63,265 nt of DNA from Obrimoposthia wandeli (GCA_977020255.1 CDROCS010003202.1:186001-249265); one strand, 5' to 3'; counted from the first letter of the stretch, positions 2,561 to 55,302 are shown. The notes: a model not told the origin generated them from the sequence alone. Made by a program: numbers and translations.

Positions 2561-3283
2561 GATCTTAATTAATTTTTCCTTAACTTGATCTGGAATCTCT
2601 TTTGCGATCTCCCCGTTCTTTTATCATCAAACACAGAAGTGCGACCATTTTAAAATACTTGACATACGTTTTCACAGTAGCATAACATAAAGAATCACCA
2701 TTGTACATATATTGAAGCATTTTATTTATTTCAGTTGCGTTTAGTCCTTGCAAAACAAAAAACTTGATAACACTACACTTAATTTATCAAGTATTTGAAA
2801 ATGTTCCACTAAAAATATAAACAAAAATAACACATTAAAATAACGTATATAGTTATTACCTATATATAATTATGTAGTTATATGAAAAAATAAAGGATTG
2901 TATCTATCATTTTTCTATAGTAGGCTAGACTTATTAAATATACCACGTATATAATTACTTAAAGTAAAATTAATAAATTTTATTTTACTTTCTTTTGAAA
3001 GTATCAAATGAATTACGTAAAATGTTAAAAGTTGAAATTATAAAGATATTTTGATTAAATTTAATATTTTCAAAATCATATGAAATTTAAAGAAGAGTGT
3101 GATAAAGAGACTAATATTTACAGTTATAAGAGCAGAACGTAGTAGTTTTCTTTGTTAAAAAAACTATAATGTAATGAGTAGGTGGAGTAGGTCTTCTAAA
3201 AGCGTACATGTGAGTTTGGAGTATGCTTGTATGTAAAAATATATGTTAATAAAACTGGTAAAGAAGAAAACGAATTAGTATAT

Positions 3284-3736
3284 TAATCAAATAATTTCTG
3301 AAACGCTTCCGAAAATCAAATAATCTCTGAATTGTTTCCGTAAATCAAATAATTTTGGTTCAAATAATTTCTGAAACGCTTCTGTAAATCAAATAATATC
3401 TGAATTGTTTCCGTAAATCAAATAATTTTGGTTCAAATAATTTCTGAAACACTTCTGTAAATCAAATAATATCTGAATTGTTTCCGTAAATCAAATAATT
3501 TTGGTTCAAATAATTTCCGAAACACTTCGGTAAATCAAATAATATCTGAATTGTTTCCGTAAATCAAATAATTTTGGTTCAAATAATTTCTGAAACACTT
3601 CTGTAAATCAAATAATATCTGAATTGTTTCCGTAAATCAAATAATTTTGGTTCAAATAATTTCTGAAACACTTCTGTAAATCAAATAATATCTGAATTGT
3701 TTCCGTAAATCAAATAATTTTGGTTCAAATAATTTC
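3284..3736. repeat. 73-bp composite tandem repeat (about 6 units) within the LTR
   Basis: 'caaataatttc(t/c)' recurs at 3361, 3434, 3507, 3580, 3653 and 3726. Each unit is built from aatcaaataat sub-repeats. Confidence 0.95.
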
Positions 3737-4353
3737 TTTTAATTTTTGTTGAATCTTCTAAAATTTATTAGCACAAGAAAATAAATTATCCTTTATAAAT
3801 AGGTAATGTCAATATCCACACAAAACTGCAGTATGGTCTGGACTAGGTGTGTGATCACTGTCACCGACCGCACACACACACAACGAACCACAATCACCGC
3901 AGAAGAGACAGATGGATCCAGAAAAGGAGATCAGAGATCCATAGACAGGCAGCAGTTCAGGGCAAAATGAAAAAATCAGGACACCAGATTGCACACGGGC
4001 ATGTGCATGTGCAATTTGACTTTGGCAGCACTGATAGATTTAGGATGCGAAATCGACGGCTGATAGAACACACACACAGTCATAGATTCCAAATCAATAA
4101 CACAACACACAGACACCGTCTACACAGCATAAATGTCATTGGCAGTACTGCTGGCATTTTACAGAGATAGAGGGAGAAATGAGACCGCAATTCCCACTTA
4201 GATAACATCGACGGCGGCTGTTGTTGATGTTGTTGTTGGTAGAGGTATGATGCTGGCCGATGATGGGGAAGGAAGGTGGAAGAGGACCAAATCTGCTGGG
4301 AGGTCCGGAGAGCTGGGCGGAAAATTCACTGTGGTTAATCTTGTTATCAAGCC

Positions 4354-4406
4354 GCCTTCCTGATGAACCTGGCAAGACGAAACGGGACGTCCACCCCGTC
4401 GGAGGC
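4354..4406 (+). ncRNA. Type I hammerhead ribozyme with degenerate helix II
   Basis: GCCTTC-CTGATGA-ACCT(GGCA)AGAC-GAAA-CGGG(ACGTCCAC)CCCG-TC-GGAGGC. The core is intact and helices I and III pair, but helix II has two mismatches. Cleavage would fall after C4400. Confidence 0.75.
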
Positions 4407-4749
4407 TGACAAGTAAAACCTCCCTGACTGTGGGCACTTCAGTTAATGTCAATTTTAATTGACTAAAAATATTTATTAATTTTTATTAATTTTTTAATTA
4501 ATTAATGTATGCAATTAATTTTTTAACCCAACAATCCTATGGGGGTAAACAAAGTCAGACCTCTGACGTTTTTATAAACAAGAATAGAAAGAATGTCCCG
4601 TTTAGTACATAGCTGTCTAACGTGACTTTCACAAAAAATTACTCGAGTCTGTTAATGTAAAGATAAAAATTAAAACATTGATTTTACACTTTGCATCCAC
4701 AAGCAATAATACATTTAGTGAATGATGCATAGTAAAATATCTTACTAAT

Positions 4750-5943
4750 CTAAAGGTTGTCCTCAGAATCAAAGGAGCAAATGTCTACGACTTCAGGCAG
4801 GTTATTATTGGCAATGCAGGGGAGAGAGACCGTCAGTCCATATTCTTCTATAAGCTCTTGCTCTTTATGGAGGAAAATCTTTCGGGTCCATTGTGTGTCT
4901 ATGAGGCTAGAGTGGGTATTCTTTTGTATTTCCTTATTGAAATACCACAAAACCATTCGAGCAAGTCCAGCTTGTTCTCTACGGTTCATTTCTAATTGAA
5001 TAGTCTGTGTTGCTCCTAGATCGACCGTGTGCGAAAAATCGTTTTTCTGTAGTCCTAAAACTTTGAGATCGTTGGTTATTCCCGTCTCTACGAAAATATT
5101 GTCTCTTAGCAAGGATTGAAGGCGTTCTAACACTTCGACAGAATCAGGTTGGTTTCTTAACTTCCGTTCGTTAAGGCCCATTATTCTTGTCACATAATTC
5201 CTGATTCTGTCTCTGCTATTGCATTTTGTATCCAAAACGATCTGTCCGCTTCTATTCATTATAGTAATGCTGGCTAGGGTGGGTTGTTTATTCATCTTTA
5301 CTACCATTTCACAATCGACAAAAAATATTTGAGGATTGTTATGGATGATGTTCAAATGGCAGACTTGTACGGGATTAGGTCGCACATTTTGTTCTATGAA
5401 TAATATGTTATTTCCACCCGACAAAAGAATCATCAAATCGGGAGTTATTTGATGTCTCATCAACCGGTAAGAGTGGTTTTGCAGGAGAAGGACAGAGAAA
5501 TGTTTGCTTTTCTTGTGTTTTAAAAATCCACGGCCTTTTGCTACGTGAATCTTAATGTCCGTGCATGTAGGTAAGAATTTCATCAACTCAAACAGTCTTT
5601 GTTCTGTTGGCTTTTTGCTATTTTTGTTGAGAATTATGCTTTGTCTTGGGGTGTCTCTTAACTTGATGCTATTTGGAAGCTGGGTCTTATTGTCAAAAAT
5701 CTTTATTCCGTAATGTTTATGGAAATACCTTGTTCCAAACTGCCTTATTTTTCCATAAAGGAACTTAGCCATTTTTGCCATTTCTGGACGTTGTTCTGCT
5801 AACTGGACTAACTTCTCTCTCTTACCCTGCGGCACAACCTGCCAGTTCAAATGAAGATTCGTGCTTGTGGGTTCCATCTGTAGGGTATACAGATATAGTA
5901 AAAATAAAAGTTGATTTTTATATGCAAATATAAATATTGTCAA
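4750..5943 (-). CDS. Accessory protein with a C-terminal DEDDh 3'-5' exonuclease (REX4/ISG20-like)
   Basis: 397-aa ORF with 'FFVDCEMV' (ExoI), 'LASITIMNRSGQIVLDT', 'IRNYVTRIMGL', 'GITNDLKVL' (ExoII) and 'HSSLID' (ExoIII). Confidence 0.85.
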   Translation of the reverse strand: MTIFIFAYKNQLLFLLYLYTLQMEPTSTNLHLNWQVVPQGKREKLVQLAEQRPEMAKMAKFLYGKIRQFGTRYFHKHYGIKIFDNKTQLPNSIKLRDTPRQSIILNKNSKKPTEQRLFELMKFLPTCTDIKIHVAKGRGFLKHKKSKHFSVLLLQNHSYRLMRHQITPDLMILLSGGNNILFIEQNVRPNPVQVCHLNIIHNNPQIFFVDCEMVVKMNKQPTLASITIMNRSGQIVLDTKCNSRDRIRNYVTRIMGLNERKLRNQPDSVEVLERLQSLLRDNIFVETGITNDLKVLGLQKNDFSHTVDLGATQTIQLEMNRREQAGLARMVLWYFNKEIQKNTHSSLIDTQWTRKIFLHKEQELIEEYGLTVSLPCIANNNLPEVVDICSFDSEDNL

Positions 5944-6302
5944 ATGTCTATCAAATGAAATGTTCCTGTCAGTTTATTTGTCTCTTTTTGTTACTCAAAA
6001 GTCTGTAAATCATTTTAGTCTTTCATGTAACAAGCTCAATCAAACAGGTATATAAATAAGATATAATTTTTCATTCTTTAATACATATTCTTATTACTGG
6101 TGTTTTCAATATCAATATATACATACTTATATAAATATACTCATTTTTATCTATTCTTAATTTTATTATTACCACTTCAACTAAAGCTAATGAATATTAA
6201 TACCCATTCATAAACACATTTCCCTTCCAAAAACATGCCATAAGCTCAAACTCATTCTCAATTTTCTTTTATTTTATATTTTAATTTACTCACTGGATTT
6301 TA

Positions 6303-6611: not shown

Positions 6612-7782
6612 TTTCTAGAATAAGTCTTAATAAGTCTTAAGTTCATTTTTATTATTTTCTATTTAAACTAAACACATACGCACTTTTCTTCATCTACATT
6701 ATAAATACTTTATTTTATGACTAGTTTTTATTTTAATATTTCATTTATGTATTTTCTATGACAATTTTATAAAGGTTTTTCTCTTTTCTGTTTACTATTC
6801 TCAATTATTATATTTATTGACACGTTAGATGAATTTGAAGAGCTAGGAATGATGGATGTCATAAATGGGCCAGGTGGTTCACAATACTTAGTCCGATAAT
6901 GATTCTTGAAAATTGTGTTATTTTTTACTTTAATGATCTTCCATGTTATTTTTATGATTAATGTGCAGGTTTCGATTATTATGATTGTTATAAAAAATTC
7001 CTTGTTATTTATATTTTTGAGTATTTTTGTTTACTAAAGTGTATTTTTAGACTTTCATTAAATGATTTATAGGGTATTGTTTCTGTTGTTTTTAATTTTT
7101 TGTTAATTGTTTTATTTTCTGTGATATTACTTTGATTTGTAATTTCATAAGTCTTTGTTGTGAAGGTTGTAGTATGTGGTATTTGTTTTATGGTTGTTTC
7201 TTTGATATATTTCCTAATTGTAATTACTGACCATTGGCCACAAAAAATCGTAGGTTGGTATAATTTGGATATTTTATTTCCTAAAATCCTTAAGTTTGTT
7301 AGATTTTTACAAGTCTCAAATTGTTGTCCCCATTGTCTATACATTATTGGTTTGTTAGTAATTACACATTCTCTATTATCCATAATTATTTTTTCTGGAT
7401 ATCTTATATTTTTTATAGTTATATTTGTTCTGATTTGTGATTTTTCTAATTGTTTTTCTGCGTCTTTCCAAAAATGAGCATTATGTCCTCTATATCTAAT
7501 TCTAATGAGGGTTTTATCAAAATTATCTATTTTAAGTTAAAATTCCCAATTTATCATGATTTGATGTTTTGTTATATATTTTGCTGTCGTTTTTAATAGT
7601 GAAGCTAAGTATAAGTGTTAAGTGGGGATTGATGTATAAAAACTGATTCCAATAATAATATATTCAATTCAAAATAAATATATGTTTTCCAACTCCAGTA
7701 TAGTTTTTACAATAATTTGAGATTGATCACAATTTTAATACAACAAAATAGTTTCTGTAATAATTTTATATTGATTACTATT

Positions 7783-7945
7783 TGTAATTGACAATAGTTT
7801 CTGTGGCAATTTGGATAATTTATTCAGATAAACCTGTAATTGACAATAATTTCTGTAGCAATTTGGATAATTTATTCAGACAAATCTGCAATTGACAATA
7901 GTTTCTGTGGCAATTTGGATAATTTATTCAGATAAACCTGTAATT
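7783..7945. repeat. 52-bp tandem repeat (about 3 units) inside the solo LTR
   Basis: 'tg(t/c)aatt' unit starts at 7783, 7835, 7887 and 7939. Confidence 0.9.
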
Positions 7946-8517
7946 TTTATGTATTGACGATGTTGAGATTCGTCTTTTCACTATTCTATTTATAGAATAG
8001 TTGATCCGGAAAATAGTCCATTGCGACCGGGGGTTGGAGAGAGGGAGAGAGAGAGATAGACAGATAATTCTGCTGGTAAAAATAGATGGCACACAACAGC
8101 AGAACAGTCGGCAATCTCGGCTCTGTACACACAACTACAGATGTAAGGCCGGAAAATATTGCCGCCTGTTTGGCTTCTGGGCAGAGAAATCCTGGACAAG
8201 TGGGAAATCTGGCTTACATATAATACATACACACCAAACAGAATGTGAGTGAGTGACTAGGGAGAGTGAGTGAGCAAGTGATTGAGTGAGTGAGTGAGTA
8301 GTGAGAGTGAGTGAGTTGAGTGAGTAGTGAGAGATGTATTTCATGTCTGCTGTGTGAGTGTGTGTGTGTTGAATTGTGCACTTGCGCACACCAACATCAC
8401 ATGTCGTCGATATTCGTCGGCACATGAAAGGGGGAATCTTTCCTTCTTTTCTCTGGCTTTTTATTATTGTTATCTCTGGCTTCGCGGAATCCACCGCGAA
8501 GTTAGAGATAACAAGCC

Positions 8518-8569
8518 ATCTCCCTGATGAGCCCGGCAGGGCGAAACGGGCTTTTTCCCCGTCGGAGAT
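8518..8569 (+). ncRNA. Type I hammerhead ribozyme, fully canonical
   Basis: ATCTCC-CTGATGA-GCCC(GGCA)GGGC-GAAA-CGGG(CTTTTTC)CCCG-TC-GGAGAT. It has the canonical CUGAUGA/GAAA/GUC core and three perfect helices, with cleavage after C8563. Confidence 0.95.
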
Positions 8570-9199
8570 TAACCACTCTAAACTAAAATGCCAAAGTGCA
8601 TATTTTATCTAAATAGAACTTTTCCCTAATTAAGGAAAGTTCTTAATTAATTCCTTAATTAATAAATTCTCATTTTTTAATTTTTATATATATATATATA
8701 TTTTTATTTTTTAAATAAATATTTATAAGATATTCCCAACATAAGTGAGTTTCTATAATTCTTTCATAGAGTGTTATATTCTTTAAATTCGACTTAACTC
8801 TTATTTTGTATTGTGTCTCTGTTCTTAAAAATGGTATTATATAATTTTTTGATTCGATTTTTGTAAATATTTATTATTTGATTTTTTTCAGATTGTATTA
8901 TTTGAATTCTTCCTAATTTTTTTGTAAAGAGGGATATTTTCAACTTTATTGATGTGATTTCAGGTATTATTGTAATAAGTCCAAAATTTTTTATGAGATG
9001 TGTTGATGAGTCGTATCTATTTATTTCGTCTTTTACTATTAATTGATTTTCATTCAGGTTTATAGCGTTTACTTTTATTAGGTTACTTTTTACTGCAACA
9101 TATATTACTAATAACATCATTATTTTACATATTTCTTTTATTGAGATTTTTATTATATTTCTAGTTTGATGACACAAAATAGTATTGTTTTGTTTTTGT

Positions 9200-12100
9200 G
9201 AGTTTTTTATAGTTAACATTTGTAAAACAGTATTATTGTTAGTTGATCTTAAATTATATTTGTGACTTTTTACTTTTGTATTTTTCTCAGGTATTTCTCG
9301 ACATCTGCTTATATGTGTTCTTATTTCTTTTGATTTTGGTTCATTATCTAGTTTAGCTGTTATGTTGGTTCCGTTGGTACTAATAACTGTATATGGTCCT
9401 TTGTATGGTTTTGATAATTTGTGTGATAATCCTACATTGATTTGTGGATTGTGAATCATTACTTTACTTCCGATTTTTATATTTGATGGCTTAGTTCTTC
9501 TATCATAATATTCTTTGTAATTTTCTTGTATGTTTTTTACAAATAATTTAGCTTTTTCGAATGCTAGTTTTATTCTTTCTCTTATTTCTATTTTGTATTC
9601 AGGTATTTCTAGGTACTGTGTAGTAGGTTGTAGTAATGTTAGGTCAATATGCATTTGAGGATCTCTGAGGAACATAAGGTAAAAAGGTGTTTCTCCTGTA
9701 GATGCATGTACTGATGTTCTATATGCAAAAGGGCATGGAGGTATATGTAAATCCCAATCTGTTTGGTTGTTGTTTGTGTATGATGCCATCATATCTTCGA
9801 GGGTTCTATTAAATCTTTCTACTAATCCGTCGGTTTGAGGGTGATATGGAGTTGTATTGATCTTTTTTATGTGAAAAGTTTCAGCTATTGACGCTAATAC
9901 ATTATCTATAAATTCAGGACCTTTGTCGGTTAATAATTTCCGGGGTGCACCGAAAGTAAAAATAATTTTTTCGACTAAAACCTTCGCGATGGTTTCAGCC
10001 TTATGATCATGTGTTGGAAAAGCCTCTGGCCATCTTGTAAAATAATCAGAAAATACTATTATATATCGATTTCCTCGGGTGTTTCAGGTAATGGCCCCAT
10101 TACATCCATGGCAACAGTTTCCATGGGGGCTGATGGATACGGTATTGGTTTTAAAGGTATTTTTGTGGTACGTAAAGTGTTTTTTTGTTTAAGACATATT
10201 TCACAAGTATTACACCAATTTTTTACATCTTCTTTCATATCAATCCAATAATATTTTAAGTTTAATCTCGAATGTGTCTTTTTTGTTGAAAGATGTCCTC
10301 CTAAAGCTCCGTTATGATATTGAAGGAGTAATTGGCCTTGTATTTCTTTAGGAATAACTAGTGAATACAGATTTTTATCGTTTAGATAATGTAAAATATT
10401 GTTACTGAATTTATAACGAGATTCATGAATTTTTAAATGTTTTCTTAATTTTTCATCTGTTGGAACTTGATTGATGGTGATGTACTTAATTATTTGTTGT
10501 ATTTCCGAATCTTTGCTTTGAAGATCGGTGATTACTGTTTCATCATATCGAGCTTTGATTATTGTAAAAAGATTTAATTCGATGTCATTGGAATTTATTA
10601 CATTTACTTCTTCTCTTATTCTAGATAGGCAATCTGCGTTGGCATTTGATTTACCTTTTCTATATTTAATTTCAATATCATATTTTTGTAAAATTAACGC
10701 CCATCTCATTAATCTAGATGTCGTATCTTTATGATTTAGTAGCCACTGTAATGGTCGTTGATCGGTATAGACGTGAACTTATCGACCTAATAAGTAATGT
10801 TTAAAATGTTCCATTGCGAAACAAATAGTGAGGCATTCTCTTTCTATAGTTGAATAATTTATTTCGTGTTTTTTAAGACCTCTGTTTGCGTAAGCTATCA
10901 CATGATCTTTTTCGTTATTATCTTGTTGTCCTAGTACTGCTCCTAACGCATAGCCACTTGCGTCAGTCATTACTAAAAATGAATTGTTGAAATTAGGATA
11001 TCTAAGTATAGGTTTTTCAATCAATTTTTGTTTAAGTACTCGTATGACTCTTGTTGTTCCGTTTCCCATTCAAACTTTTCATCCTTTTTAATAAGTTTAT
11101 TTAACGGTGTCGCTATTTGTGCGAAGTTTCTGATAAATCTACGATAATATCCTGCAAGTCCTAAAAATTCTTGTATATTTTTTACTGTTTTTGGGATCGG
11201 AAAATTCTTTAATTTTTCTATATTACTTTCATCTGGTTGAATTCATTTTGCAGACACTGCGTGACCTAGATAATTCACTTTGTCTTTCATCCATTCACAC
11301 CTTTTTGGTTTTAATTTTAAACCTGCTATTTTTAATCTAAGAAATACATTTTCTAAATCTTTTAAGTGTTCTTCAAAATTTTTTGAAAAAATAAGAATAT
11401 CGTCAATATAGACCATGACATGATCGGCGTCCATTAAAATGTGGCTCACGCATCTCTGAAATGTTGCTGGAGGACCTGTTAATCTAAAAGGTAAAACATT
11501 AAATTCGTATAATCCTTCTCCTGTTGAGAATACTGTTTTTTCTTTGTCTGATTCATCTATTTCTATCTGCCAATATCCACTTTGTAAATCTAAAGTTGTA
11601 AATATTTTTGCAATTTTTAATTTATCCAAGATTTCATCGATTCTTGGGAGCGGATATGTGTCTTTATGTGTAACCTCGTTTAATTTTCTGTAATCTACGC
11701 AAAATCTTAGTGAACCATCTTTCTTTTTTACTAAAACAACTGGAGATGTCCATGCTGAAAAACTTCTTCTTATGATTTTATTCTCTAACATTCCTTTTAC
11801 CTGTCTTTGAGCTTCTTCTCTGTAAGCGTATGGGATACGGTAAGGTCGTTGTTTAATTGCTGTATTAATAGTTAAAGGAAGGTTATGTTTAATTAAATCT
11901 GTTCGTCCAAGGTCATATTCATTTTTTGCAAAAATTACGTCATATTTTTCTATTAATGATTTTAGTTTTGATTTCTCATAATCATTTAATTTAATATTTT
12001 CAAATTTTACAGTGGAATTGTCTTCTATTTTTTCATTATTAATTAATTCTATATTTTCTATAACGCTTATTTTTCCAAGGCACATTCCTTCTTTTAGATG

Positions 12101-12490
12101 AATCTCGTTTATGTCTGCATTTAGTATTCTGATTGGTATTGTATTATTTTTTATTTTACAAATTATATTTGGTAGAACGTAATTTAGTGTTTCTTGTTGA
12201 TATTTATAAGGTTCGAATAATATGTCTTTTTCTGTAATTATGTTAGTTTCTAGTTGTAATATTGTTTCTGTTCTAGGTTGAAGGATGATGTCTCCTTTTA
12301 TTTCTAATTCGTATTCGCTTTTAGCGTTTGATCTGTAAATGTCTTTAATTTGATTTTTCTCGAAGTCAAAATGAAATTTTTTTCCTAATTTCCTTAATGT
12401 ATATATTCCAATTATCATCTGGCATGGACAATTTTTCATTATTCTAGTAGGTATTTTTATAAATTTATCTCCTATTTTAAAAATGCAATC
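9200..12490 (-). pseudogene. pol: Gypsy pol (C-terminal half of protease, RT, RNase H, integrase) with frameshifts and stops
   Basis: RT 'TLDLQSGYWQ' and 'YIDD'; RNase H 'VMTDASGYALGAVLGQ'; integrase zinc finger 'HNGALGGHLS...CNTCEIC' and 'VAMDVMGP'; GPY/F-like 'LSKPYKGPYTV'. Confidence 0.95.
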
Positions 12491-12507
12491 TAATTTACCA
12501 ATAATAT

Positions 12508-13530
12508 TTACGGGTTGACAAATTTTGTTGGTGTAGTTTTTGCATTATATATTTTTTCTTTACTTAAATATATTCCTTTATAATTAGTTGTATAAATAGA
12601 GTGTCCACATCGGGATTCCTCTTTCTTTTTAATAAATCGCATTCCAGAACCTTGTTCTGTTGACATTAGAATAGTTGGGGTTGATGTTTTTTGAATTTTT
12701 CTTGTCCTATATTTTTTATGTATATCTTTTGGCACTCTTTGATCAAGTTCCGGGTCATCTTTAAATTTTTGACCTTGAATTATTTGAAAATTTTCAGATT
12801 TAAGGAGTATTAATTTACATTGGTCTGTTTTTACCTTATAATATAAAATTGAGGATCCTGTATTGCAATGACTTATATTTGCTTCGCAAAATGGCATAGT
12901 TACCATATTATTTGTAGATGGGTCAAATGTTGCTTTGAACGTTCTTAGTTCTACTTCAAAGTTTTTTATAACTACTAAACCACTTTGTTTGACTCCCATC
13001 ACAACGTATGTGCCTGTTGTACATGTACCGTCAGATTTTATTGTTCCTATTACTGTAATCATTTGTTGTATAATTTTATTTTTTACTGCTCGTACTTTAA
13101 TTTCTCTATCTATTCTTAGTTCTCCTGTTGCAAAATCGTCCTTACAATTTAGTGCATCGACAATTATTGATATTTTTCCTAGTGCAGGTTTGACAATTGA
13201 GTTATGGCTGTGTTGTCCGCAATATGTTATGAATGTTTCTACGTGTACCCTACACTCGAAAATTTCTGTATTTAGGAAATCTGTTTCCTGGTATACATGG
13301 AATAACTTGGTGGTTTTGATTTTTACTTCGTTTGGGTCGGCATTAGCACATTGTTGCAAATCCATCAAGGAATATTTATTTTGAATACTATATTTTGAGC
13401 AATCATACGCTTCCAGGGCATTAACTGGTTTTATTATATTTGTAATTATATATATCGTAAATATTACTTGAATTATTTTCCATAAATTCTGGATGATTTT
13501 GTTGAAATTATAAGTATTTTTAAGAGTTGT
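12508..13530 (-). pseudogene. N-terminal half of a chuvirus-like / herpes gB-type (class III) fusion glycoprotein
   Basis: Signal-like 'LWKIIQVIFTIYIITNNIKPVNA' is followed by 'LEAYDCS...SLMDLQQC', 'ECRVHVETFITYCGQHSHNS', 'GTIKSDGTCTTGTY' and 'FCEANISHC'. This cysteine spacing is recalled from chuviral G proteins. The ORF is truncated at a junction into protease. Confidence 0.7.
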
Positions 13531-15200
13531 CTTTTTACTATTTTTTGGTGTTTTTTACTTTTTGATTTTGTATTTTGTGTTTGAGTAGTTTGATTTATTG
13601 TTTTACTTATTTGTGTTCTTTTTTCTAATGTTAGACAACCATTTCTAAATATATCTCTTAATTCCGATTGAGAGTTGGTACTATTTGTGTTTTGCTCATT
13701 GTTTTGGTATTGTTGATGTGTTTCTTTGTAGCGATTATCTATTTCTTGTTGTCTTAATCTCATCAATGTGACTTCTTCTGTTTCCTGAGTTATATCAGTG
13801 TTTTCAATAGTATGTATTGGGTTTCTGTAAGCATATTGTTGATTTTGATTGTTAAACTGTACTGTTTTTTGAATCTGTGGTTGTGGTTGTTGTTGTTGTT
13901 TTATTGTTGTGTTACCAAATTGGTTCATCATTGTATTTAGTTTGCTACATTCATCAGTATTGTGATTTTTCATATTACAAATTTTACAGAATTTTGTATT
14001 AGTATTAAAATATTTAGCTTGATTATTAAAATTATTAAAATTATTATATGGGCTTCTAAAATTACTATTTGCATTTTTGAAATTATTATTTGGATTATTA
14101 AAGTTATTATTTTGTGATCTTATATTATTACCTTGTCTGTATAACAATTTTCAGCAAGTTTCAATAGTATGATTGTCTTTTTTACAAAATCTACAAAATT
14201 TGTTTGTTATTTTATGACAATTTTCTATTGTGCGATTTTGCAGTCCACAATTTGTACATTTCTGGAAAGGTCTTTGTGTAATTTGTGAGTCTGTATAGTT
14301 TCTGTTTGTTTGATTTCTATAAAAGTTATTTGTCGGTGGTGTATATTGTTGTTTGTTTTGGTAATTAGATTGTGAGTTTGGGTTGTAGTTTTGAGTTTGA
14401 TTGAAATTTGGTGGTGTTGTTGGTCTTTGTATTTTTTCAAATGTTAATGCTGAAATTTCAGATTATTGTAACTTGTTTAATCTTGTTTCTACAAGTTGAG
14501 CTTTATTTACAGCCTGTTGAAAATTTTCTACTTCTAGTAGTGCTGGGTGATTTTTTATTTTATTGTTTAGCCCATATAGAAACTGATGTAGGAGTAAGCG
14601 TTCTCTTAAGACTTCCTCAATTCCGGGAAATGATTTTAAGGCTAATCTTCTTAATTCAACTGCAAAGATATTTGTGGGTTCTCCCATATGTTGTTCACGT
14701 TGCCTAAATTGGTTAAGGTAATTTTGTTCTGATTGTGCTCCTAAAATAATATTTTGAAAATTCTGGACCAAATGAACCCATGTGTCTTTCTGTTCATTAT
14801 TTAATCCTCTATAAATTGTTAAGGCAGTGCCCTTTAAATACGCCGGAAAAACCCTAAGTTTCTCTACATTAGTCCATTCAAATGCCTGAGCAAATGAATC
14901 AAATCTATTTAAAAATTCAGGTAGTGAAGATTTATCGCCATTGAAAGCGTCTAATGGAACATTTAACTTATGTTCAACCATTATTTGAGGTTGATTGATT
15001 ATTTGTTCGTTGTTTATTTGTACAATATGTGGTTCTGGTACGGCCACTGCTTCCGTTATCTCTGACGAACTATCCGAGTCAGATGTTTGTGGTGTAGGTA
15101 AACTCTCTGTATTTGAAGTTAATGTTAGGTTAAGATGTTCTGAGAGTGAGGAAGTCTGTGTAATTAATCGTTATTTGTTGTAAAACTGATTTGTGATTTG
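13473..15200 (-). pseudogene. gag: Gag (capsid domain plus zinc-knuckle-like motifs), frameshifted
   Basis: 'LDAFNGDKSSLPEFLNRFDSFAQAFEW' and 'FRQREQHMGEPTNIFAVELRRLA' match the Retrotrans_gag pattern. Knuckle-like 'CKICNMKNHNTDEC' is present, with a second near 14150-14200. Confidence 0.9.
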
Positions 15201-16639: not shown

Positions 16640-16657
16640 TCTTTGTCGAACTCACCA
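16640..16657 (-). promoter_or_regulatory. Primer-binding site (TGGTGAGTTCGAC...)
   Basis: On the minus strand, TGG starts 3 nt after the LTR end AACA. The same TGGTGAG junction recurs at 28680-28690. The cognate tRNA was not identified. Confidence 0.7.
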
Positions 16658-16660
16658 AAT

Positions 16661-17509
16661 TGTTAATAAAACTGGTAAAAAAGAAAACGAATTAGTATAT
16701 TAATCAAATAATTTCTGAAACGCTTCTGTAAATCAAATAATCTCTGAATTGTTTCCGTAAATCAAATAATTTCTGAAACGCTTCTGTAAATCAAATAATA
16801 TCTGAATTGTTTCCGTAAATCAAATAATTTTGGTTCAAATAATTTCTGAAACGCTTCTGTAAATCAAATAATATCTGAATTGTTTCCGTAAATCAAATAA
16901 TTTTGGTTCAAATAATTTCTGAAACACTTCTGTAAATCAAATAATATCTGAATTGTTTCCGTAAATCAAATAATTTCTGAAACACTTCTGTAAATCAAAT
17001 AATATCTGAATTGTTTCAGTAAATCAAATAATTTTGGTTCAAATAATTTCTTTTAATTTTTGTTGAATCTTCTAAAATTTATTAGCACAAGAAAATAAAT
17101 TATCCTTTATAAATAGGTAATGTCAATATCCACACAAAACTGCAGTATGGTCTGGACTAGGTGTGTGATCACTGTCACCGACCGCACACACACACAACGA
17201 ACCACAATCACCGCAGAAGAGACAGATGGATCCAGAAAAGGAGATCAGAGATCCATAGACAGGCAGCAGTTCAGGGCAAAATGAAAAAATCAGGACACCA
17301 GATTGCACACGGGCATGTGCATGTGCAATTTGACTTTGGCAGCACTGATAGATTTAGGATGCGAAATCGACGGCTGATAGAACACACACAGTCATAGATT
17401 TCAAATCAATAACACAACACAATGTCATTGGCAGTACTGCTGGCATTTTACAGAGATAGAGGGAGAAACGAGACCGCAATTCCCACTTAGATAACATCGA
17501 CAGATAACA
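16661..17509 (-). repeat. 5' LTR, truncated (lacks the hammerhead-containing segment)
   Basis: Near-identical to 3244-4212 apart from tandem-array copy number and a short internal deletion. Homology stops at 17501. Confidence 0.85.
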
Positions 17510-26000: not shown

Positions 26001-29000
26001 AACCGAGTAAGCTCGTAATTTTTCCCACAGTAACTTACTTTTTGAAATTTTCACAAAGATCTGTTGATAACAATTTTTAAATAAGCTGCCTTTAATCGAA
26101 AAGTGTCACATTATCGCCTATTTTTCTTCCACCTCTGATCGTTTCATGGCACACTGAATTATTCTCTGAATGACTTGATATGTGCCTATTTAACTTCCTG
26201 TAATAAAGAACTGGTCTAACCTTCGCTTTGTTTACCTACTCAACTGTCATTAATGGTGTCAACTCATCAAATTCTACGAGCCAACCGTTATCTATCCAAA
26301 TCTGAATTTCGACGATCCAGTTCCCTCTTTAACGTACGGTTTTATTCCATAATTACAAACCTTGATTCTAAGAATGGCTGGATCACAAATCCAATTCTAT
26401 TTAACATTCCATAAACTTCCATCGAACTTTGCACTAAAATCTGAATCATCTATTTCAAGATCTGACTTCCAAATGAAATAGTAACCTCATCTAGTTCATT
26501 TATTGTGTCCACTCCCAAAATAAAATCTAAACCAACGTGTAATGACTTCACTACTAGGCATTCCACTGCACACTCCCTGTAACCTATTTTAACGAATGTG
26601 CTAGGGATTTTATCACATCTAACTATACGACCATCTACACAATTTTTTTTTACATAGTAAAAATAAATGATGTCGACAAGAATCCCTTTTGTTCAACTTT
26701 CCAATATCTACTACTACAATTCCAAATATTTAAACTAATTATCACATATATTAAGAAGAATTCAAAATAAAATAATAACACGAAAATTAAAATAGTAAGT
26801 AGACGTTTAAATACAACTATAGTTGAAATATATATTTGGTTGATACAAACGATTTTGAATAAACTCGACAAAAGTATTTCATTTATTAACATAATCTCTA
26901 TCTGCATTAATAACGCTGCCATCGATTTTGGAGCTTATAAGTCCAATCTCTGTAAAACTGTTGTGACTATGAATCGAAGAAGTTGCAGAGTTTCATTCTA
27001 ATTGCTTCTCTATCACCAAATGCCTTCCCATCAAGATGACTGGAAAATATGGTAATCCGATGGTGTATTATCTGGTGAGTATGGTGAGTGCAGTAGTAAT
27101 TCCCAGCTCATCTCTAAATTTTTTTGGTGAGTATTTTTCTCCCTGTGTAGTGGATTATTCATGGAGATTTTTTTTTAAATTCCTAGTCATTTTTAGTTAA
27201 ATTCAGGACTTTGCAATTGATTACAATATATGTGTGAATTAATAGTTTTATTATTTTCAAACTATTCCCACTAGGATAATACCTTGTACATTCCACAAAA
27301 CACAACATATCTTTCATCTCGTGTAATGATATTTTGGTTCATCTTTAACTTACTGTTCACTGACATTTTTGTCTAATGTTAGCATGCAAAGCCCACTTTT
27401 TATCTTCAGTTAGTGTTGTGACTAACCAATCATTTCTACGCTTATATGATTATAAAGAAGTTAAAATATATAAACATCTAAATTTATATATAATGTGAGT
27501 TTCAAGGTACTAACTGTCCTAGTTGTGTGATCTATCCCGTAGGTGTCCTAATTCACGCATGGTTAGTCTAGGATTGGTGTGAATTGCTTCATATAGGAAG
27601 TCATTGTTTAGAACACTTGAATGACATAACCCGGGTTTATCATCACTTCCCACTGACGTTTCTGTCTAATGTTAGCATACAAAGCCCACTTTTTATCTTC
27701 AGTTAGTGTTGTGACTAACCAATCATTTCTACGCTTATATGATTATAAAGAAGTTGAAATATATAAACATCTAAATTTATATATTATGTGAGTTTATGAG
27801 GTACTACCTATCCTAGTTGTGTGATCTATCCCTTATGTGTCTCCTAAATCACGTATGGTTAGTTTAGGATTGGTGTCGACTGCTTCATATAGGAAGTCAT
27901 TGTTTAGAACACTTGAATGACATAACCGAAATTTATCATCAATACTCCAATCTCCAGATTTAAACTATGACCTAATTACGTACTGTTTACGAGATAATTA
28001 TAGCTTCATCAAATGTAAAATATTAATTACGTTGAGATTCCGCTGCTTTCGTACCCAAACAATATTCATAAAAAATACATATCCGAAAATGATCTCTAAA
28101 AAAATAATTTAACAAATATTTCAAAATATTTGAGTTTATTGATATAGTATTGATACAGAAAAATAAAACAGATAAACTCAAAACACCCTTCACCAATCCA
28201 TTATAATGCTTTTTTAAGATAGAAAAAGGGCTTATTAACCTGGATTTGACAATTTTTACAGAATTTAAAATATCAAATAATATATTTATATGTCAATAAG
28301 TTAGGGCAGTTGTGTATTGCACAATCACAATTGGTAAACAATCGACAAAACTGTTAAATCAAAAAACAAATTGTATTCTAAATAAAATTCCTGTAACACT
28401 CAGTATAGCAGAGTAATTGACAACTAATCTGTTCAAATTGTACAATCAAAAAACAAATATGAAAAATAAAAATATTGTATAAAATATATAACCTGTATGT
28501 TACTAATTTTTTAAAAAAATTACCTATTTCAAATAAGGTCTTATTGACAATCAAAAATATGTATTATTACGAAAAACCAATTCAAAAATCAAAATTTAGA
28601 AAATTCGAATTATCAAAAACTGTCAAATAAATAAATAAACGACCTGAATTTTTCTTTCCGTCTATGTTCCTTGGACGGGCTCACCAAATTGTTATAAATT
28701 GTTAAAATTCTCCGAGATTATTATTGAATTCCTGATAACTTGGTAATTATTCTAAATAAAGACTAGTGATACGTTTTTGTTTATTTATTTTGTGTGTCTG
28801 TTTTTGTGATTTGTTTTTTTTGGGTTTGTGTTAGTACTTTATTTTATGTTTCTAAAGAAATTAGTGAAAAATAGGAAATGTGTAATGCGTACGGAAATTT
28901 AAATAGATTTCGGTGATATTCGGAAAAATTATTTGGTCAATCTAAAAATCAAGTTCTCTTAGTAAAATCAAAAATACGTTCTCAAAAATTTTTTGGAGAA

Positions 29001-32000
29001 AATATTTCTATTTCATGTTTATTTTTCTATTTTTTGATTTTATGTTGTTTTTAAATTAGAAAAATGTTGAGATTCAAAAATTTCTCTCGAAAATCTCTGT
29101 CCCTTATCACTTTTAGCACTACCTACGTCAACCAGTGTATATTCTTTATATGGTATCACTCGACGCCACTTGGGAAACAAGATAATTCGTGACAAAAATT
29201 ATTAAAATTATTAGATTTATATTTATTCCAAAAATTTATATAATTATTTCAACTTTTGTTAACTTTTAATTTTAATTTTATTGTTAAGTCTTCAATAGGC
29301 AAATCCACTCTAATTTATAGTTTTCAAAAATGAATCTTTATTAATAAACCAGCTTAATAGAAAAATATGTGAACATTTATTTTATTTGAGTTGTGCTTCA
29401 TTTGTTAATTAATTTTTTAATGTATTTGTCGGTGTTCAAAACTCTATCCGACTACAGCTAGTGCATTGTATTGTATTGTATATGAACAGAACTTCGATAA
29501 TCGAAAACTTATTCTTTATTAATATCACAATTAAATTGATCTACACAACTCAAATTGCAAAAGAAAATTAGAGAATGGAACCAGATTATGTTTCGAAAAA
29601 CAAAGATTATGTTTAAACTTTCGAAGCTTGTGCGCAAAGCTGCAAACACCTCAATTATATTCATTTTATAGTATACTTATATTATAATTTCTAAATATAA
29701 TTGATGGATCGGGACACCACACACAGACACAAATGATTTGGACAGGAATAGTGGAAGAGTAATATACAAAAAATTACAATCTAGTTTATTTAATATGTTA
29801 AAATTTTCAGAATGAATATACTGGAGATGACTAATTGCAATTTTGCTTTATCAGCCATTAGTGAATTCAAATTTGATTTTAATTTGGTCAATCAGGCCGT
29901 GAAATTATGTATCCACTTTAAAGTGTTGTTTGTGACATCATTATAGTCGAGTTTTAAAGTAGTTGTGAATTTGTTTTTTATGGAAATTTGATGTCGAGTT
30001 TTGAATAATATTATGAATTCTTGGCATTTTGAAGATGTTTAGTATGGGTAATCTTTTGTTGGATATAACAGCTAAGGATTCAAAGAATGGTACAACCATA
30101 TACAGAGTTGGTCATAAATAACGAAAAAGTATTTTTTGTTTTAATTGACAAAATACTGATAACTATATGTTTATAAAGTCTATCCGGTATTTGTAATTGT
30201 ATTAACTTTAATAAAATAAATATATTAATACAATAATAAATAACATTCTATTATTTTTTATACATAGTTTGTGAATCAAGAATTATTATTTTGTACACAA
30301 ATGTGAAACATTTATGAAGACATACAATTGCATTTTTGCACATGTCTGTATCATTAACTTAATTTTTGATTAAATATTTGAACCTAATTCATCTAAATCA
30401 GGGGCGTGCAAGATTTTTAGTCGGCGGGCCATATAATATCACTTCAGATATTAAGTGGGCCACACTGAAAATCTAGAATTCATATGCATAATAAATTCAA
30501 AAATTTTACAATATATTTGCATTCAGAAAAACATTTATTTAACCTATGGAATTAAATTAAAGCTATAAAAAGTATATGGCCAAATTTAAAACTGTAAAAT
30601 TTACCTTACTGTGGCGAAACAGATTCAAATCCTGCGGAAGGTAAAAAATAAATTTTGTTAGCGAGGGCCGCACTAACTTGCAAAGAGGGCCGCACTAACT
30701 TGCATAGAGGGTCGCATGTAGCCCGCAGGCCGCTTGTTGCGCACCCATGATCTAAATTATTAATAGGTATTGCATACACTTTATCGCATAAATATCCTCT
30801 ATAAAATAATCAAGAGGATGGTGTTTTATCTCTTGGGACATCAGGTAATCGGTCCATCTCTACTTCATTAACGATCTGGAAAATTTGTATTCAAAAAATG
30901 AACGAAAATTTAGGGTCCAATGTACACCATCTTGAATATTTAAAAAAAAGTCAAATACTATTTTATCTTCAAAATTTATATCATTATCTTTGATTGTATC
31001 ATCTTATAATAAATATGGATCAATGAAGGAATGGGGTTTCTAAGGTGCTAAAAGTAAACGGATTTTTGGTCATCACAAGCCTTAGCAGAACTATTATACT
31101 GGTCGATAGTATATCGCAAAAATGGCATGGGAGCATCAGTATTATTCAGATTTGTAAATTTAAACTCTTTTGATTGGAATGCTATTGTTGCAGTTTCTAT
31201 ATGAAACTGCCTTGGAGTTTAGATATAGATCCTCTGACGGATGGCCCCAACGTGAGTTCTATAGAAGTAGGACTTGCAGTTGTTTGTGGCCTTACAGTTT
31301 ACACTTCCAACTAGAATTTTTGCAACAGTTTTTTTCACAAGTTTTACGTCTGATCTTACTTCGATAGTTATTGTGAACACTCGAAATAATATAAAATATA
31401 TATTTTGTGTGCTCATACACAAGAACGGGGCTTTAATTCTGGTTTTGGACTTTAAATTCCTCTCGATTCTTTTTCGATTGCAACCAGTAGTCCCTCTTTC
31501 TTGAACAAAAGTTTTAAATACTAATTCTTATGAGTATCTGTCGAAATGCATTATATCTCATTTTCGAGTTAAATTTATCTTGTTATGAATAATGAATACA
31601 TTGGATATTACAATATCAATAGGAAAATCCACTGCTTTGATCTGTGGTCAATTTGATACGTATTTGTTATCTGGCTACAAACAGAAATGTTTAGGTCCTA
31701 TATTTCATCCGTGAATGAATGATCTTAATGACCGAAGAAAGTGAAAATATACAGATTCGACTGTATTCCGTTTCTTCTCAACTGTTCTTACTACTGTCTG
31801 TGCTGAAATCGAAATCACTTAAACACTCATTTAATTCTCCTTGGAATTGTTGACCGCTGGCCTCGTTCCCAGTACTATTTTGGTAGAAACAATGATTAGC
31901 TGGCCTGTTTCCACGCGTTAATGGATTCGCCGTCTGAGACTTGATGTCAACTGGTTTGCTTCCCAGCGAACGTTTGTCGTGATAATTGATTTTTCTTTCT

Positions 32001-35000: not shown

Positions 35001-38000
35001 AAATCAAGCTGTATGCACATTGGCCCAGAGTCCCGAATCACATTCTCTGTCAGTTGGACGGCCCTCAGTAAGAAGTCTCTGTTGCTGTTTACTATTTACA
35101 TGTTGTCTTTCCACCTCCAGTCTGCCTGTGTCCACTGCCAATATGTGGTACATGCTGTGCGACATGGAGAGCTCTTTCGATGGTATACACTGTGAGTTTC
35201 AATAACCAGGGATTTATGGGATTTTTATTGGGTGCTCACACATAAATGCAAACTGCAACATTTATGTATTTTTTAAAATTTTAATAAATTTACTTTTACT
35301 GTAGGTTGGCTATATTTTGAACTCAATTGTTGCTTTGAGTGGTCAAGTAAATTAATTTCATTATCTTTTCGTAATTATTTCTAATTCAACAAATCAATTT
35401 TGTTATAATTTGTCTTATGTCGTAGTTATGACTGCATTCTGCAGCACTAAATTGTTATTTACTGTTAATCGCATTTTTCCAATCAATATTAATTTAATTT
35501 TTAACATAACAAAACAAGAAACATGTATTTAATCTAGCTTCGGAATGTAGTTTTTCACAAATGCTTTTAGTTTTAAGTTAAAACTTTTAACTGTTTGAAT
35601 TCATTTAAATTTGATTTTAGTAATCATCAACTACTTTTAAAAATAAATAGTACAGCTTATGAATAAATATAAATTGTTTTGTGAAACTATAATTAATAAT
35701 GTCAGTGACGTACAATGTAGTCACCCTGGAATTTCGTATATATTTCAATTATCTCTTTCAAATTATTAGTAGCCAGAATTTACTTTATCGCTTAATTTAT
35801 ATTTTTGCTGGATACATTTCGTTATACATAATCCTTCAAATATGGAAGACTAGTAAAATATTATTAACAAATAAATACGTACAGGGCCTTAGTCAATAAT
35901 AAAAAAATCATTATAAGTGATACGTAATCAGGAATGAGCAACACGAAGCTAACGCATCTGTCCGGCGTGCAAAGCATCTACATTTAACACTGGACACATT
36001 TATATATAAATAAAGCGTGATTATCTTCATTCTTCAATGATAAGCTCTTTCTTTTATTTAATTTAAAATATAATCTTAATAATTTAGTGTAAAGTAAGAT
36101 TATTAAATATATAGTGCTTGAATCATGATGTACATTTTCAGATAAAACTCTACGCAAATTGCTCAAGGCGTTTTTGGTTGCTGAAAAGCCAACGGACATC
36201 GTACGGGACAGTAAACTGCAAGAATGTGAGTACACCGGAATATTATCTTTATATCAAATAAACATCAAATGGAAGTTATTTATTCCAATACTAAGCTGAA
36301 TAATTTTCTTTTTTTATGGCTGACATTTACCAAAAATTGTGGAACATTTAAGAAATAAAGTAAGTTTTTATATTTTAACAAATTTATCATGAAATTCTCC
36401 TTTAATAAGAGTATTCAGGGGAAAATCTTGTGAATAAACTGGGTTTGCCAGTTTGACCTGTAGCGCTGAGAACTCAGTTAATCCAAAATATAAATTAAAT
36501 TAAACGAATAGTTTTCATGAAGCTTTTACTAATACGTTTGTTGCTAAAATCAGTTCCTGTACATCGCAACTTTATCATTTGAAGCAGTTACGTATGGATT
36601 ATTTACCAGAAACCAGTAACCAGGCTATTTATACAATTGCATTCACTAACGCACTATATCAGGATACTCTTAATACAGCACTGTTGTCTAAATCATTTAT
36701 TAGATATTATTACTATCAGAAGCCATTTCTCCTTATTATAATTATGACTATTTTGAACAAATTTTTAGGTGTATTTGAAACCGGCTGAGCAGTGTCTGTC
36801 GATAAAGTAAAATATTAAATGTTGATTGTATATTTTACTACTTTTAATAATCGGTTTTAAATTTATGGATAACTTAAGGTTACTGCTCTTTAAAAGAAAA
36901 AACGGTGATAATAAAGCCCTTAAAGAAAGAAAATCGGGAGCTATGTGAGCATTATAGAAAACATGTATAAACATAATTGAGAATGCCCCACCAGTCCTCA
37001 TTAGGACTTCATACGAAATGGATGGGAGGAGACGGGGAAAATAAACTATTAACTCTATTTTGATGAAACAGTTGTTTAATGTATTTATTGATGATTAGTT
37101 GATGGTTAGTAGATTATTTGATAGAAATTGGTAAAACGTACTGAATCATTTTCATATTTAAAATTTAGGCGAAAGCAAACCTAATGATTTCATAATATAT
37201 TGTGCAATAAAAATTAGAAAATAGGGATAAAGTGTAACAGGAATAGGCGACAATGGTTAGTCATGACAAACGCAATACAACATACATGCTAACTCGATGT
37301 ATTCGACAATTCTAAAATATCCCTTATAAATGACCTAATACCAAACATTAATGTTATTTAATTTCAGTAAACAGCTTTACATCCAGCTTCGTTTCATTAA
37401 TTTCAGCATGCCATTAATTAGTTTAATCAGATTTAATATTCCCGTGCAGAGTAGCTTTTAGGCACAATACAGAAAACTGAAGACATCAGATTAAATTATA
37501 TTTAGTGATACTGTTGATATCAAAATTAAAAACATTCTTCAGATGATACTCACTTATTATCTAATTTCTCTATAGTATTTCCACATCAGTTTTTGAGAAT
37601 TGTTTTTTGTCTGTTTATCTAATCCACAAATTCAAAGTTCAGATTAAATGACATTCAGAATTTGAATTATAGTTTCCAATAAATTCAGGGTCTACCATCA
37701 ATATAAGCACAAACAATAATAAGTCACCTTCTAGTTCATGGTATGTTGTACAAAAGTTATAAATTGTAATCGCGAATCGTTGACAGTTGCTTTTGAGGAA
37801 ATGATACCGATTCTCTACTTCTACATCATATAGAAAGTCCAACAGATTTTTGATATTTATGTTGCATTTATCTTCATTTAACAATGTAAGTGGCCTTCTT
37901 CTGTATCCTCCTAATTTATCTCTAACGACGTAAGCTTTCTTGCTTCTCTGAATTTTTATGGATTCTTCGTCTTTTTCCACAGACCACCAAAATGTATCAG

Positions 38001-41000
38001 TCTTAAACACCACTAACTGATGATGGAAAACCAACGAAAGCCCTTGAATGCCGGTTAATGGAACTTTATTTCGATTAACTTCAGTGATTTTCTCAAATAT
38101 ATCTATTTCCTCTGCAATTTCGTCAAAGGTGTACGGTCTGAATTTGCCATTATCTTCCAATTTGAAATGAACCTCCTTTGTCCAACAATTTTCCTCCACA
38201 TTTGATTTAGTTGAACTCGAAGCCATATTGAATAACAGAGTTTAACGGATCCAAAAGCGTTGTTTATTTTTCAATACAGAACTTGACATTTCAACTGTCT
38301 GTTATTTATAGAAAGTCCAACTGGATTTTTCACTGTGCTGTAAGAACTCAAAAAGAAACTGAAAAGGGTATTTAAAATTTACTTTCAAACGAATTAAGAG
38401 TTACATAATTTTATAGAAGAAAATTTTACCATTATTTTAATAACACAATATATTTTTTTAATTAAAATAAATGCACTACTTAGTGAAGGAGAAAAACCAA
38501 AATTAACCAAATTACAACACTTTCTGAAATCTTTAAGTTTCCCTTCAGTTTAAATTTAGAATATATACTTGTTTTCTCTTGTCTTTTTGCTTACTTTTCG
38601 TCATGTTTTCTTTCATAAACTTTATAAAGTTGAATGATTAACATGAATATTTGCTATTAAATATATTTTAACTCTGATAAACTAAGTGATCTCCAAAAAC
38701 AAACCGATCTCCATTAAGCTAGTACAAAATACATAATAAAATATATAGAATCATTCACAATAATACTTTTTCTCTTTTCTGAAATTTTCTATATTAAAAA
38801 TGTAGTTTTCAAAATGACTACTAAACCTAGAAGGAAATATGTTATGTTTGGTTGAATCCCATTATAATAACAGACTACAAAATCTTTGTTGTAGTGGTTG
38901 ACCAGTTTTGTAGTGGCTTACATGAGTTTGAAATTGGATTGATTACACTACAATACATGATTTTGTTTAACAAAAATTATTTATTATATGCTTTAAGCAT
39001 TTTTAATGTATATTTCAAATTTGTTTTTACTTCTACATCTAGATTTCTTTTAAAACACATTTGAAGATTTTTTGTTGTTGAAGATGATAGTTATTCAACT
39101 GATATTTATGCCTATTGCAGCTCTAAGCGAAGGTTTGCCACCATAATGTAGCCCATCCACGATATAGTGGGACGGCATATTTGGGAGAATTTAAAATTCA
39201 CAAAGGAAGGATGTAAAAAATATATAATTTTAAATGCATTTGTAACGAAAGGAAGAGCAAGAATCTCATAGTGGTTTCACCTTATTATAATAAGTTATTG
39301 CATTTATTTATATTACAATCTGCGTATATTTTGTGCATCTATATATATACCGGGTTATTCACAAGTAACCTACCATCTTAAATTCCATCTAGTATGAAAA
39401 GAACGATTCAAAATGTTATAGTACACATATTTCGAAAATTTACAATTTCGGATTAACTATTGAGCACATGTTCCAAAACTGCTACTAACAGACTCGTCGA
39501 TTGGTCTTCCACCTTTCGACAAATTGTGCACTGTGCCTTCTTTCTCGAATTTCGTTATATGATTTCTGACAGTGTGTCGATCAGGTAAGTTTTCTCGTTT
39601 CTTTATATTCATGGAAGTACCAAAGGCTCTGATTTTTGTAAAAAAATTTCGCAAAGAGGATACATTCTTCGACAGAAAGCATTTCGGTGACAGAAAGCAA
39701 ATTTAAAATTAAAATCTTAAAATTAAATTAAAGCATTAAAACAAAAACAAAATGAATATTATATCAAAATTCATAAATCTGATTTATCCAAGAGAACAGC
39801 CATAGAAAAGAATTTGTTTAAATATATTTGTATCAATTTAATATCAATTTAAATATGGTAGGTTACTTATGAATATCTCGGTATATGTGTTTATGTTTAT
39901 TTGTAATTTTGTGTGTAAAGTTTATGGTGATGTGATACAAAAAATGAATTTTATTTTTGAATTTAGGATTTAAAATATAAAATTACACTGGTCTCATGAA
40001 AATGGTGATGTTTAATTTCCCGACAATCAATTGCCTGACTTTTTAAAAATTATTATCTTTTATTAAAATCATCCAGAAGTTTATTGCCAGTTTTATCACA
40101 TCCATAACAGTTTTATTTTATTTTCACCAATTCAAAATATGTTTCTCTTTTATTTCTTTTTAGATTCTAAAAAACTTTTCTAATTTTACCTTTAACTTTT
40201 TTTCATTTTTTTTTTAAATAATTTTTTAGTACACTTATTTTCCTGCAAATAGGTTTTTAATTGCGTTGGAGTGTTGGGTTACAATAAATTAATTTTATTT
40301 TTAGTATAAATACTTATGTCGTTTATTATAAATTCATTTTCCTAATCTAACAGTATGATCGCGTTGATGAAGGATAAGTTAATGAGTTTGAAGCGTTAGA
40401 TGAATCATGTTTAGTATTGAAGATGTTGTACAGTAATTATTCACCTATAAGGGGTCCCACCTATAAGGGTGTCCGGTCACTGAAAATTTCACGCTTCACC
40501 TATAATAGTGAAGTAATGCAATTGATTCGGTGTCGGTCTCTCAGAACTTATACATATTTTAGTATAATCCCCACATGGCCTGATTTATTGATTTTCTGAA
40601 AATTAGGTGTTGATTTATTAGAGATACGAGTCAGATAGAATGTGTGAGTTGTGATGCTAATTATGTTCTCTATGACTGATAAACTTACATACAGTTAATT
40701 TAATATCATTGTGCAGTGGACTCAGTGCAAATCAATCAGCCGCTGCTGAAGTTGACACAGCCTCCCATCAGCCACAAGATCGCCCATCAGCTCGGGCGTG
40801 TAACTCCTGCATTGACTTCTTCAGCCAATAGATCGCCCAGCCACTCGAATAACAGCTCGCCTCTCAACGACAAGATGGTCCAGACGATCCTCGAGGTGAG
40901 ATAACCCGATTACACCGGTTTCATTTGGAAATTGACTCTACAATTGCCTTTTCAGGATTTTCTTTCTTTCAAAAGATTAATTGGTGCTTTTCTAGTGTAA

Positions 41001-53538: not shown

Positions 53539-53572
53539 AGTAAAACCGATTACAATTTATTACACACAAAAG

Positions 53573-55265: not shown

Positions 55266-55302
55266 TAATATAAACAATATTAAAAATGAAAGAGTATATG
55301 CA

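Follow-up and report, generated by a model that had tools for sequence, protein, structure and literature searches.

The LTR element spanning approximately positions 17501 to 3244 on the minus strand of the analysed DNA of Obrimoposthia wandeli (a stretch of 63,265 nt, referred to as the window in the following) is a decayed, internally deleted copy of an abundant virus-like LTR retrotransposon family. Taking all observations together, it is likely a dead, deleted copy of a high-copy Ty3/gypsy family with the order GAG-ENV-POL and an envelope protein of the gB type, whose proteins would be made as a membrane-threaded polyprotein with two surface proteins. The order GAG-ENV-POL with a gB-type env is already in print and is not new. 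What seems to be unreported is a second, variable membrane protein, designated as module X, which is located past the integrase in the same frame. The original prediction, which was made from the sequence of the window, did not recognise that a single ORF comprises gag, env and pol, nor that it extends beyond the integrase into a second membrane protein. The features of the window copy are compiled in the table.

Table. Features of the element in the window (positions counted from the first nucleotide of the window)
Feature	Position	Strand	Evidence or remark
5' LTR, outer end deleted in the window copy	16661..17501	-	8 mismatches in 853 columns to the 3' LTR, gaps aside; ends CA
Primer-binding-site-like sequence, starts with TGG, just inside the 5' LTR	16645..16657	-	Seen in the sequence
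gag: capsid-like domain, Cys-His knuckles, Asn/Gln-rich spacer	13555..14981	-	Pfam, motifs; stops at 14465 and 14153
Internal signal-peptide-like segment of gB	13417..13482	-	Hydropathy peak; cleavage point by eye
N-terminal part of a chuvirus/gB-type class III fusion glycoprotein ectodomain (predicted)	12520..13416	-	PF24664
Deletion junction, 1,249 bp missing in comparison to family copies	12516..12519	-	10 of 10 copies measured
Aspartic protease, second half, without catalytic motif	12383..12517	-	Alignable with the protease of longer copies
RT, RNase H and integrase in Ty3/gypsy order	9160..12382	-	RVT_1 (E 1e-32), RT_RNaseH, Integrase_H2C2, rve
Second signal-peptide-like segment and start of the module X ectodomain, integrase frame	8742..9159	-	Hydropathy; break near 8865
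Solo LTR, TG...CA, 4-bp target duplication, inserted in module X	7616..8741	-
Rest of module X: ectodomain, anchor (~7003-6923), short tail	6767..7615	-	One stop, one frame break
Small accessory ORF, 103 codons	6303..6614	-
Accessory DEDD-type exonuclease ORF	4750..5973	-	Pfam RNase_T (E 2.2e-8)
3' LTR, TG...CA, 1,290 bp, 73-bp tandem repeats inside	3244..4533	-

The assignment to Ty3/gypsy (Metaviridae) is based on LTR ends of the type TG...CA with a short target duplication and on the Pol order PR-RT-RNase H-integrase, which was found with Pfam in three of three long frames. The target duplication comprises 4 bp in a second assembled copy of the window insertion, and 3 of the 4 bases are present in the window copy; the second copy has also kept the full outer end of the 5' LTR. 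No Pfam family of a BEL-type Pol was detected in the window or in the long frames; RT_RNaseH, Integrase_H2C2 and a gag-asp protease were found instead. In gag, the match to Pfam Retrotrans_gag (E 1.3e-4) is under the cut-off, and the knuckle motifs are present. The Pol stretch of the window copy is interrupted by stops at 11245 and 10781 and by frame breaks near 11035 and 10080. Family elements measure about 14 kb, their main frame comprises about 2,900 codons, and a separate exonuclease ORF mostly follows it (9 of the 10 copies compared at length). The region of the small accessory ORF is approximately 90% identical in most of these 10 copies. Two types of the exonuclease occur, which are about 89% and about 69% identical to that of the window; one of the 10 copies possesses neither the exonuclease nor the small ORF, and its LTR differs.

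The ORF 13554-12511 on the minus strand (348 codons) follows gag directly and encodes a hydrophobic signal-like stretch and then a Cys-patterned ectodomain, as had been predicted. It matches the Pfam family PF24664 (Monjiviricetes_fusion) at profile positions 4-207 of 653 (E 3.2e-26) and, judged from this sequence match, covers the first third of a putative chuvirus/gB-type fusogen. Neither a start codon nor any other in-frame Met is present within 24 codons ahead of the signal core. Between gag and env, one frame break occurs near 13545-13555 in an A-rich stretch, and a protease motif is absent between them, both in agreement with the original prediction. The frame break is absent from the second assembled copy of the same insertion and is thus private to the window copy, being a private slip or a read error.

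At 12516-12519, env is joined to the second half of the protease, which is in a different frame. The prediction that the C-terminus of env and the active site of the protease had been deleted here proved correct, since the copies measured have 1,249 more bases at this position, which encode the rest of gB, the membrane anchor, a linker and the first half of the protease with the catalytic DTG motif. Among ten copies compared at length, nine contain roughly 1.25 kb of additional sequence at this site, and one has the same deletion. Both flanks of the latter are about 98% like those of the window, and the solo LTR is also common to both, so that this copy is the same insertion assembled twice (allelic or duplicated). 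The exact junction occurs once in the genome. The idea that the deleted form is a spreading non-autonomous subfamily was not supported, given this single occurrence and the shared flanks of the sole other deleted copy.

When the genome was searched with the env piece, all 125 scored matches were 94-100% identical. These matches were scored out of 17,522 candidates, and the family thus comprises at least 125 close copies. Several of them contain open frames of 2,301-2,911 codons, and multiple similar copies with uninterrupted ORFs, as expected for GAG-ENV-POL elements, are therefore present at 94-100% identity; the threshold given in PMC13524379 itself is 98%/98%. In three long frames, Pfam detected PF24664, the protease with DTG, RT, RNase H and integrase in this order, and the entire frame of the family comprises Gag, a signal peptide, gB, a membrane anchor, PR, RT, RNase H, integrase, a second signal peptide, X, an anchor and a tail. 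The family copies hence have, between gag and pol, an env that includes both a signal peptide and an anchor; the window copy has lost the anchor. In a control search of the same genome for env-less gypsy elements, 30 of 30 RNase H loci among the matches listed belonged to this family.

In 28 of the 29 top loci outside the window, gB extends beyond the break of the window copy, and 24 of the 29 reach the start of the protease. Gag and gB are joined in one frame in 24 of the 29 loci (20 without a stop), including the second copy of the window insertion, which agrees with the predicted location of env between gag and pol and shows the A-run frameshift to be no property of the family. The gB anchor and the protease share one frame in 16 of 29 loci (12 without a stop), and five of the 29 are without that region. 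At the transition from integrase to X, the last 64 codons before X keep the integrase frame in 22 of 35 copies; in the remaining 13, the frame is displaced by 1-2 bases in either direction and at different places, mostly in A-runs. Over a longer span of 360 codons, only 11 of 29 copies remain in one frame. Copies broken at the gag-gB, gB-protease and integrase-X junctions thus number 5/29, 13/29 and 13/35, respectively, and some of the frame shifts between copies may be read errors. Programmed frameshifting at the gag-env or the integrase-X transition was considered and rejected, as most copies are in frame and the displacements occur in either direction at varying positions. In comparisons of copies across subfamilies, gB has a dN/dS ratio of 0.02-0.12, which resembles that of Pol; all these pairs have one copy in common and are not independent. 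The env is under purifying selection, and it was therefore in use while the family spread.

The identification of the env product as a chuvirus/gB-like class III glycoprotein is supported by the longer copies, three of which match PF24664 with E values from 6e-91 to 2e-87 in two stretches reaching position 636 of 653. The structural check gave a divided result. Foldseek with the gB model (mean pLDDT 39) returned chuvirus-like glycoproteins as best matches (E 1e-10), whereas solved class III fusogens reached only Z 3.6-3.9 with this poor model (HSV gB and Thogoto GP Z 3.9), beneath unrelated folds. A search of PDB sequences with gB gave no match. Two hydrophobic segments follow gB in this family and one in most of the public relatives described below, and therefore one of the two probably lies next to the membrane without spanning it. 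With two crossings, Pol would end up in the lumen, and the model described below thus requires that one of them does not cross.

The frame runs about 400 codons past the integrase and encodes a signal-like segment, about 310 residues with many N-glycosylation motifs, an anchor and a short tail. An in-frame Met is located about 22 codons ahead of the signal core of X. In the window copy, X is interrupted by the solo LTR, which resembles a sister subfamily's LTR (84% over about 460 bp); an LTR piece related to it lies at 81-319 of the window. Subfamilies with 98-100% identity in gB show only 57-67% identity in X, and the dN/dS ratio of the X core is 0.29-0.34 (dS 0.36-0.68), several times that of gB, again with pairs that share one copy. 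As far as these sequence comparisons go, the divergence of X points to selection together with exchange of the 3' end. The subfamilies have a near-identical gag-env-pol core and unlike 3' ends, which likewise suggests exchange.

Relatives of X were not detected by sequence in Pfam (whole module), among 4,812 candidates, among 1.84 billion representatives or among PDB sequences. A fibronectin-III fold of the ectodomain is a lead from profiles and models. ESM Atlas gave values of 0.86-0.92 to FN3 clusters, and Pfam fn3 matched with an E value of 0.07, beneath the cut-off. A profile built from 22 FN3 domains of the same assembly scored 7.8-8.6 bits with X (0 of 200 shuffles) and 4.4-5.0 bits with two Pol controls, likewise beneath the cut-off. 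FN3-like motifs were counted 11 times versus 0, a comparison which is partly circular because the motif was drawn from the same sequences. The low-confidence structure model of X (pLDDT 36) shows one beta-sandwich with C2 domains as best matches (Z 8-9). Pfam found no fn3 match in six post-integrase ectodomains of public relatives.

Fifteen public proteins (P0005-P0019; 1,299-3,865 aa) match gB with 37-45% identity. In all 15, gB is directly preceded by a signal-like segment and followed by an anchor, and Gag lies ahead of gB in the 9 relatives in which the Gag query matched. Ten of the relatives run past the integrase, and 9 of these 10 possess a second unit of signal, ectodomain and anchor in frame (P0012 is the one without). 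The hydropathy peaks of the second signal and anchor are 2.0-3.4, in comparison to at most 1.6 in the RT-integrase stretch of the same relatives. Leave-one-group-out profiles linked the post-integrase modules of P0005, P0007, P0010, P0013 and P0016 (0 of 200 shuffles) and that of P0011 (1 of 200); with the same profiles, X of this family and the modules of P0014, P0017 and P0019 were not detected. The relatives thus have the post-integrase slot in common with this family, whereas what it contains is variable, in part possibly fibronectin-III-like, and may be of more than one origin; X may be an independent capture, as far as can be judged from the sequences. The RT tree was unresolved at its base. 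Most public relatives also possess two or three aspartic-protease domains, some of them after the integrase just before the second signal peptide, and in P0017 and P0019 the post-integrase slot is occupied by a small Cys-rich ectodomain instead.

A second gB family occurs in the same genome (loci L111-L129, e.g. L112-L113 and L114-L115). Its env is 41% identical and its frames reach 5,301 codons, with Gag, gB, protease, BIR, RING, a second protease, RT, RNase H, integrase and a dual-specificity phosphatase in the long frames and up to four hydrophobic segments, including post-integrase ones. This family is Burro-like and closer to Burro than the window family is; the phosphatase is not named in the Burro passage of PMC6431247.

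The window contains further features outside the element. A fragment at 28745-29659 is 77% identical to the 5' untranslated region of the element, and no gag was found beside it. A decayed mariner-type transposase lies just outside the 3' LTR (1738-2783, by eye), and an intronless ORF of 200 codons (37639-38241) matches PPPDE peptidases weakly (E 8e-4). GC-richer exons of a host gene at 43843-46919 presumably encode a protein resembling the Rab3GAP catalytic subunit, as judged from a motif. The region 53000-63265 harbours a decayed Maverick/Polinton-like cluster with pieces of a type B DNA polymerase, an integrase and a TBP-like ORF, as well as ATPase-like and protease-like ORFs judged by eye.

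The supposition that the gag-env-pol order is new was correct regarding the order of the family and incorrect regarding its novelty. For planarian Burro / GYPSM1 elements, an env in frame between gag and pol, one polyprotein and matches to mononegavirus fusion glycoproteins have been described (PMC6431247). GAG-ENV-POL elements of the gB type were reported from Nematoda, Bryozoa and Platyhelminthes, with nine flatworm elements listed (Chary and Hayashi, PMC13524379). Among the latter, Smed_errantivirus_1-6 share with the window family a Ty3/gypsy Pol, the position of the gB-type env after gag and before pol, a large number of recent copies and, probably, a flatworm host; the env of Smed_errantivirus_2 shares 8 of 8 cysteines and, in one block, 23 of 40 residues with the window protein (by eye). 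In the main text of PMC13524379, the terms 'polyprotein', 'fibronectin' and 'exonuclease' have 0 matches, and its elements may possess such features unnoticed. Concerning the host, a multi-copy COX1 on two large contigs scored best under the flatworm/echinoderm code 9 (438 bits versus 424 and 421). Together with the Burro-like second family and the resemblance to the planarian env, this makes a flatworm the most likely host. The assembly also contains many bacterial-type COX1 genes and one animal COX1 that scores best under code 5 (L131-L137), and other organisms are thus present in it.

Burro differs by an ORF of 4,873-5,140 aa with BIR, MATH, BCL2 and ankyrin motifs and by an element size of more than 30 kb (PMC6431247). 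The elements of the window family, in contrast, have about 14 kb, and no BIR, MATH, BCL2 or ankyrin Pfam domains were found in the three long frames. Certain endogenous retroviruses of nematodes reportedly have a continuous ORF as well. These non-canonical ERVs carry ENV before POL (Sacco et al. 2022, as cited in PMC13524379) and come from a different host phylum. In mosquitoes, the same chuvirus glycoprotein class was captured by LTR retrotransposons (Dezordi et al. 2020, PMC7642597), whose backbone is of the BEL/Pao type, whereas the window family has a gypsy-type Pol. The bdelloid LTR elements Vesta and Juno encode a DEDDy exonuclease as ORF3 downstream of pol (PMC5408684); there it is located in place of env, whereas the exonuclease of the window family occurs in addition to gB and X. 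A report on a second membrane protein past the integrase was not found in the literature searched, although Repbase reports, the Burro and Sacco papers, or figures may mention one.

The original prediction had also offered a recombinant of two elements as an explanation for the window, and a nested product or a viral glycoprotein fragment in an ordinary gag-pol element would have the same appearance. The env of the window is indeed truncated, out of frame with both neighbours and adjoined to half a protease. However, the family copies show the same sequence order as the window to the left and right of the junction, and in them a complete env lies between gag and the protease. The element in the window is therefore a deleted copy and not a recombinant. 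Only 2 of the 125 scored matches extend over the junction, both of them from the same insertion with shared flanks (~98%), and the gag-env-pol order recurs not only in the family copies but also in the 15 public polyproteins (37-45% identity). An origin by recombination has hardly any probability left.

For the intact elements we prefer a model in which the whole frame would be made as one polyprotein and threaded co-translationally through the ER membrane, as are the polyproteins of flaviviruses. With translation as a single polyprotein, cleavage sites and topology derived from hydropathy only, Gag would remain in the cytosol, and the first signal would send gB into the lumen. The anchor of gB would bring the chain back, so that PR-RT-RH-IN would be cytosolic, and the second signal would direct X into the lumen. 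Signal peptidase and the protease of the element would free the parts, and particles would bud, carrying gB and possibly also X at the surface; gB would then fuse membranes for cell-to-cell spread. X would most likely be an attachment or host-interaction protein, which is the weakest step of the model. A single frame for all parts would yield Gag and Pol in equal amounts, which is unusual for retroelements and counts against a polyprotein. Particles need far more Gag than Pol, and this would rather fit a single frame that is real but yields gB and X mainly from spliced or internally initiated RNAs, with the full polyprotein serving only Pol. X occupies the usual position of env, and a spliced RNA for X is conceivable because of the Met preceding its signal. 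For gB, on the other hand, the polyprotein is favoured because of the missing Met ahead of the first signal core, and the frame is open over all junctions in many copies and in distant relatives, which splicing alone does not need. Production of both glycoproteins mainly from such RNAs is therefore considered unlikely. A purely intracellular role of gB and X, for example in tethering during assembly or as decoy receptors that change signalling, would mean that the family spreads without infecting other cells. It would suit the resemblance of X to a host-type receptor ectodomain (the fibronectin-III lead) and the host-modulating BIR, RING and phosphatase domains of the second gB family. The entire gB ectodomain with its cysteines is, however, under strong purifying selection, which fits a working fusogen better than a tether; an intracellular role is considered improbable.

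Beyond the polyprotein model, it is tentatively proposed, by analogy, that these elements are enveloped retroelements with two glycoproteins from one polyprotein. In them, gB would be the fusogen and the fast-evolving, exchangeable post-integrase protein, which may often be fibronectin-III-like, might be the receptor-binding or triggering partner, in a role like that of gD and gH/gL for herpes gB; this is possible rather than probable. For the known gB elements, cell entry is described as unknown in PMC13524379, since herpes gB needs partner glycoproteins.

The family is abundant, with thousands of candidate matches in the genome, and its anatomy suggests a route by which capsid, envelope and enzymes may be obtained from one ORF by flavivirus-like membrane threading. 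X, a predicted type I membrane protein, is a concrete candidate for a partner of gB, as it is encoded in the same frame, has counterparts in 9 of 10 relatives, is under purifying selection and is far more divergent than gB. If true, the reading with two glycoproteins would supply the entry partner which is missing in the elements described in PMC13524379.
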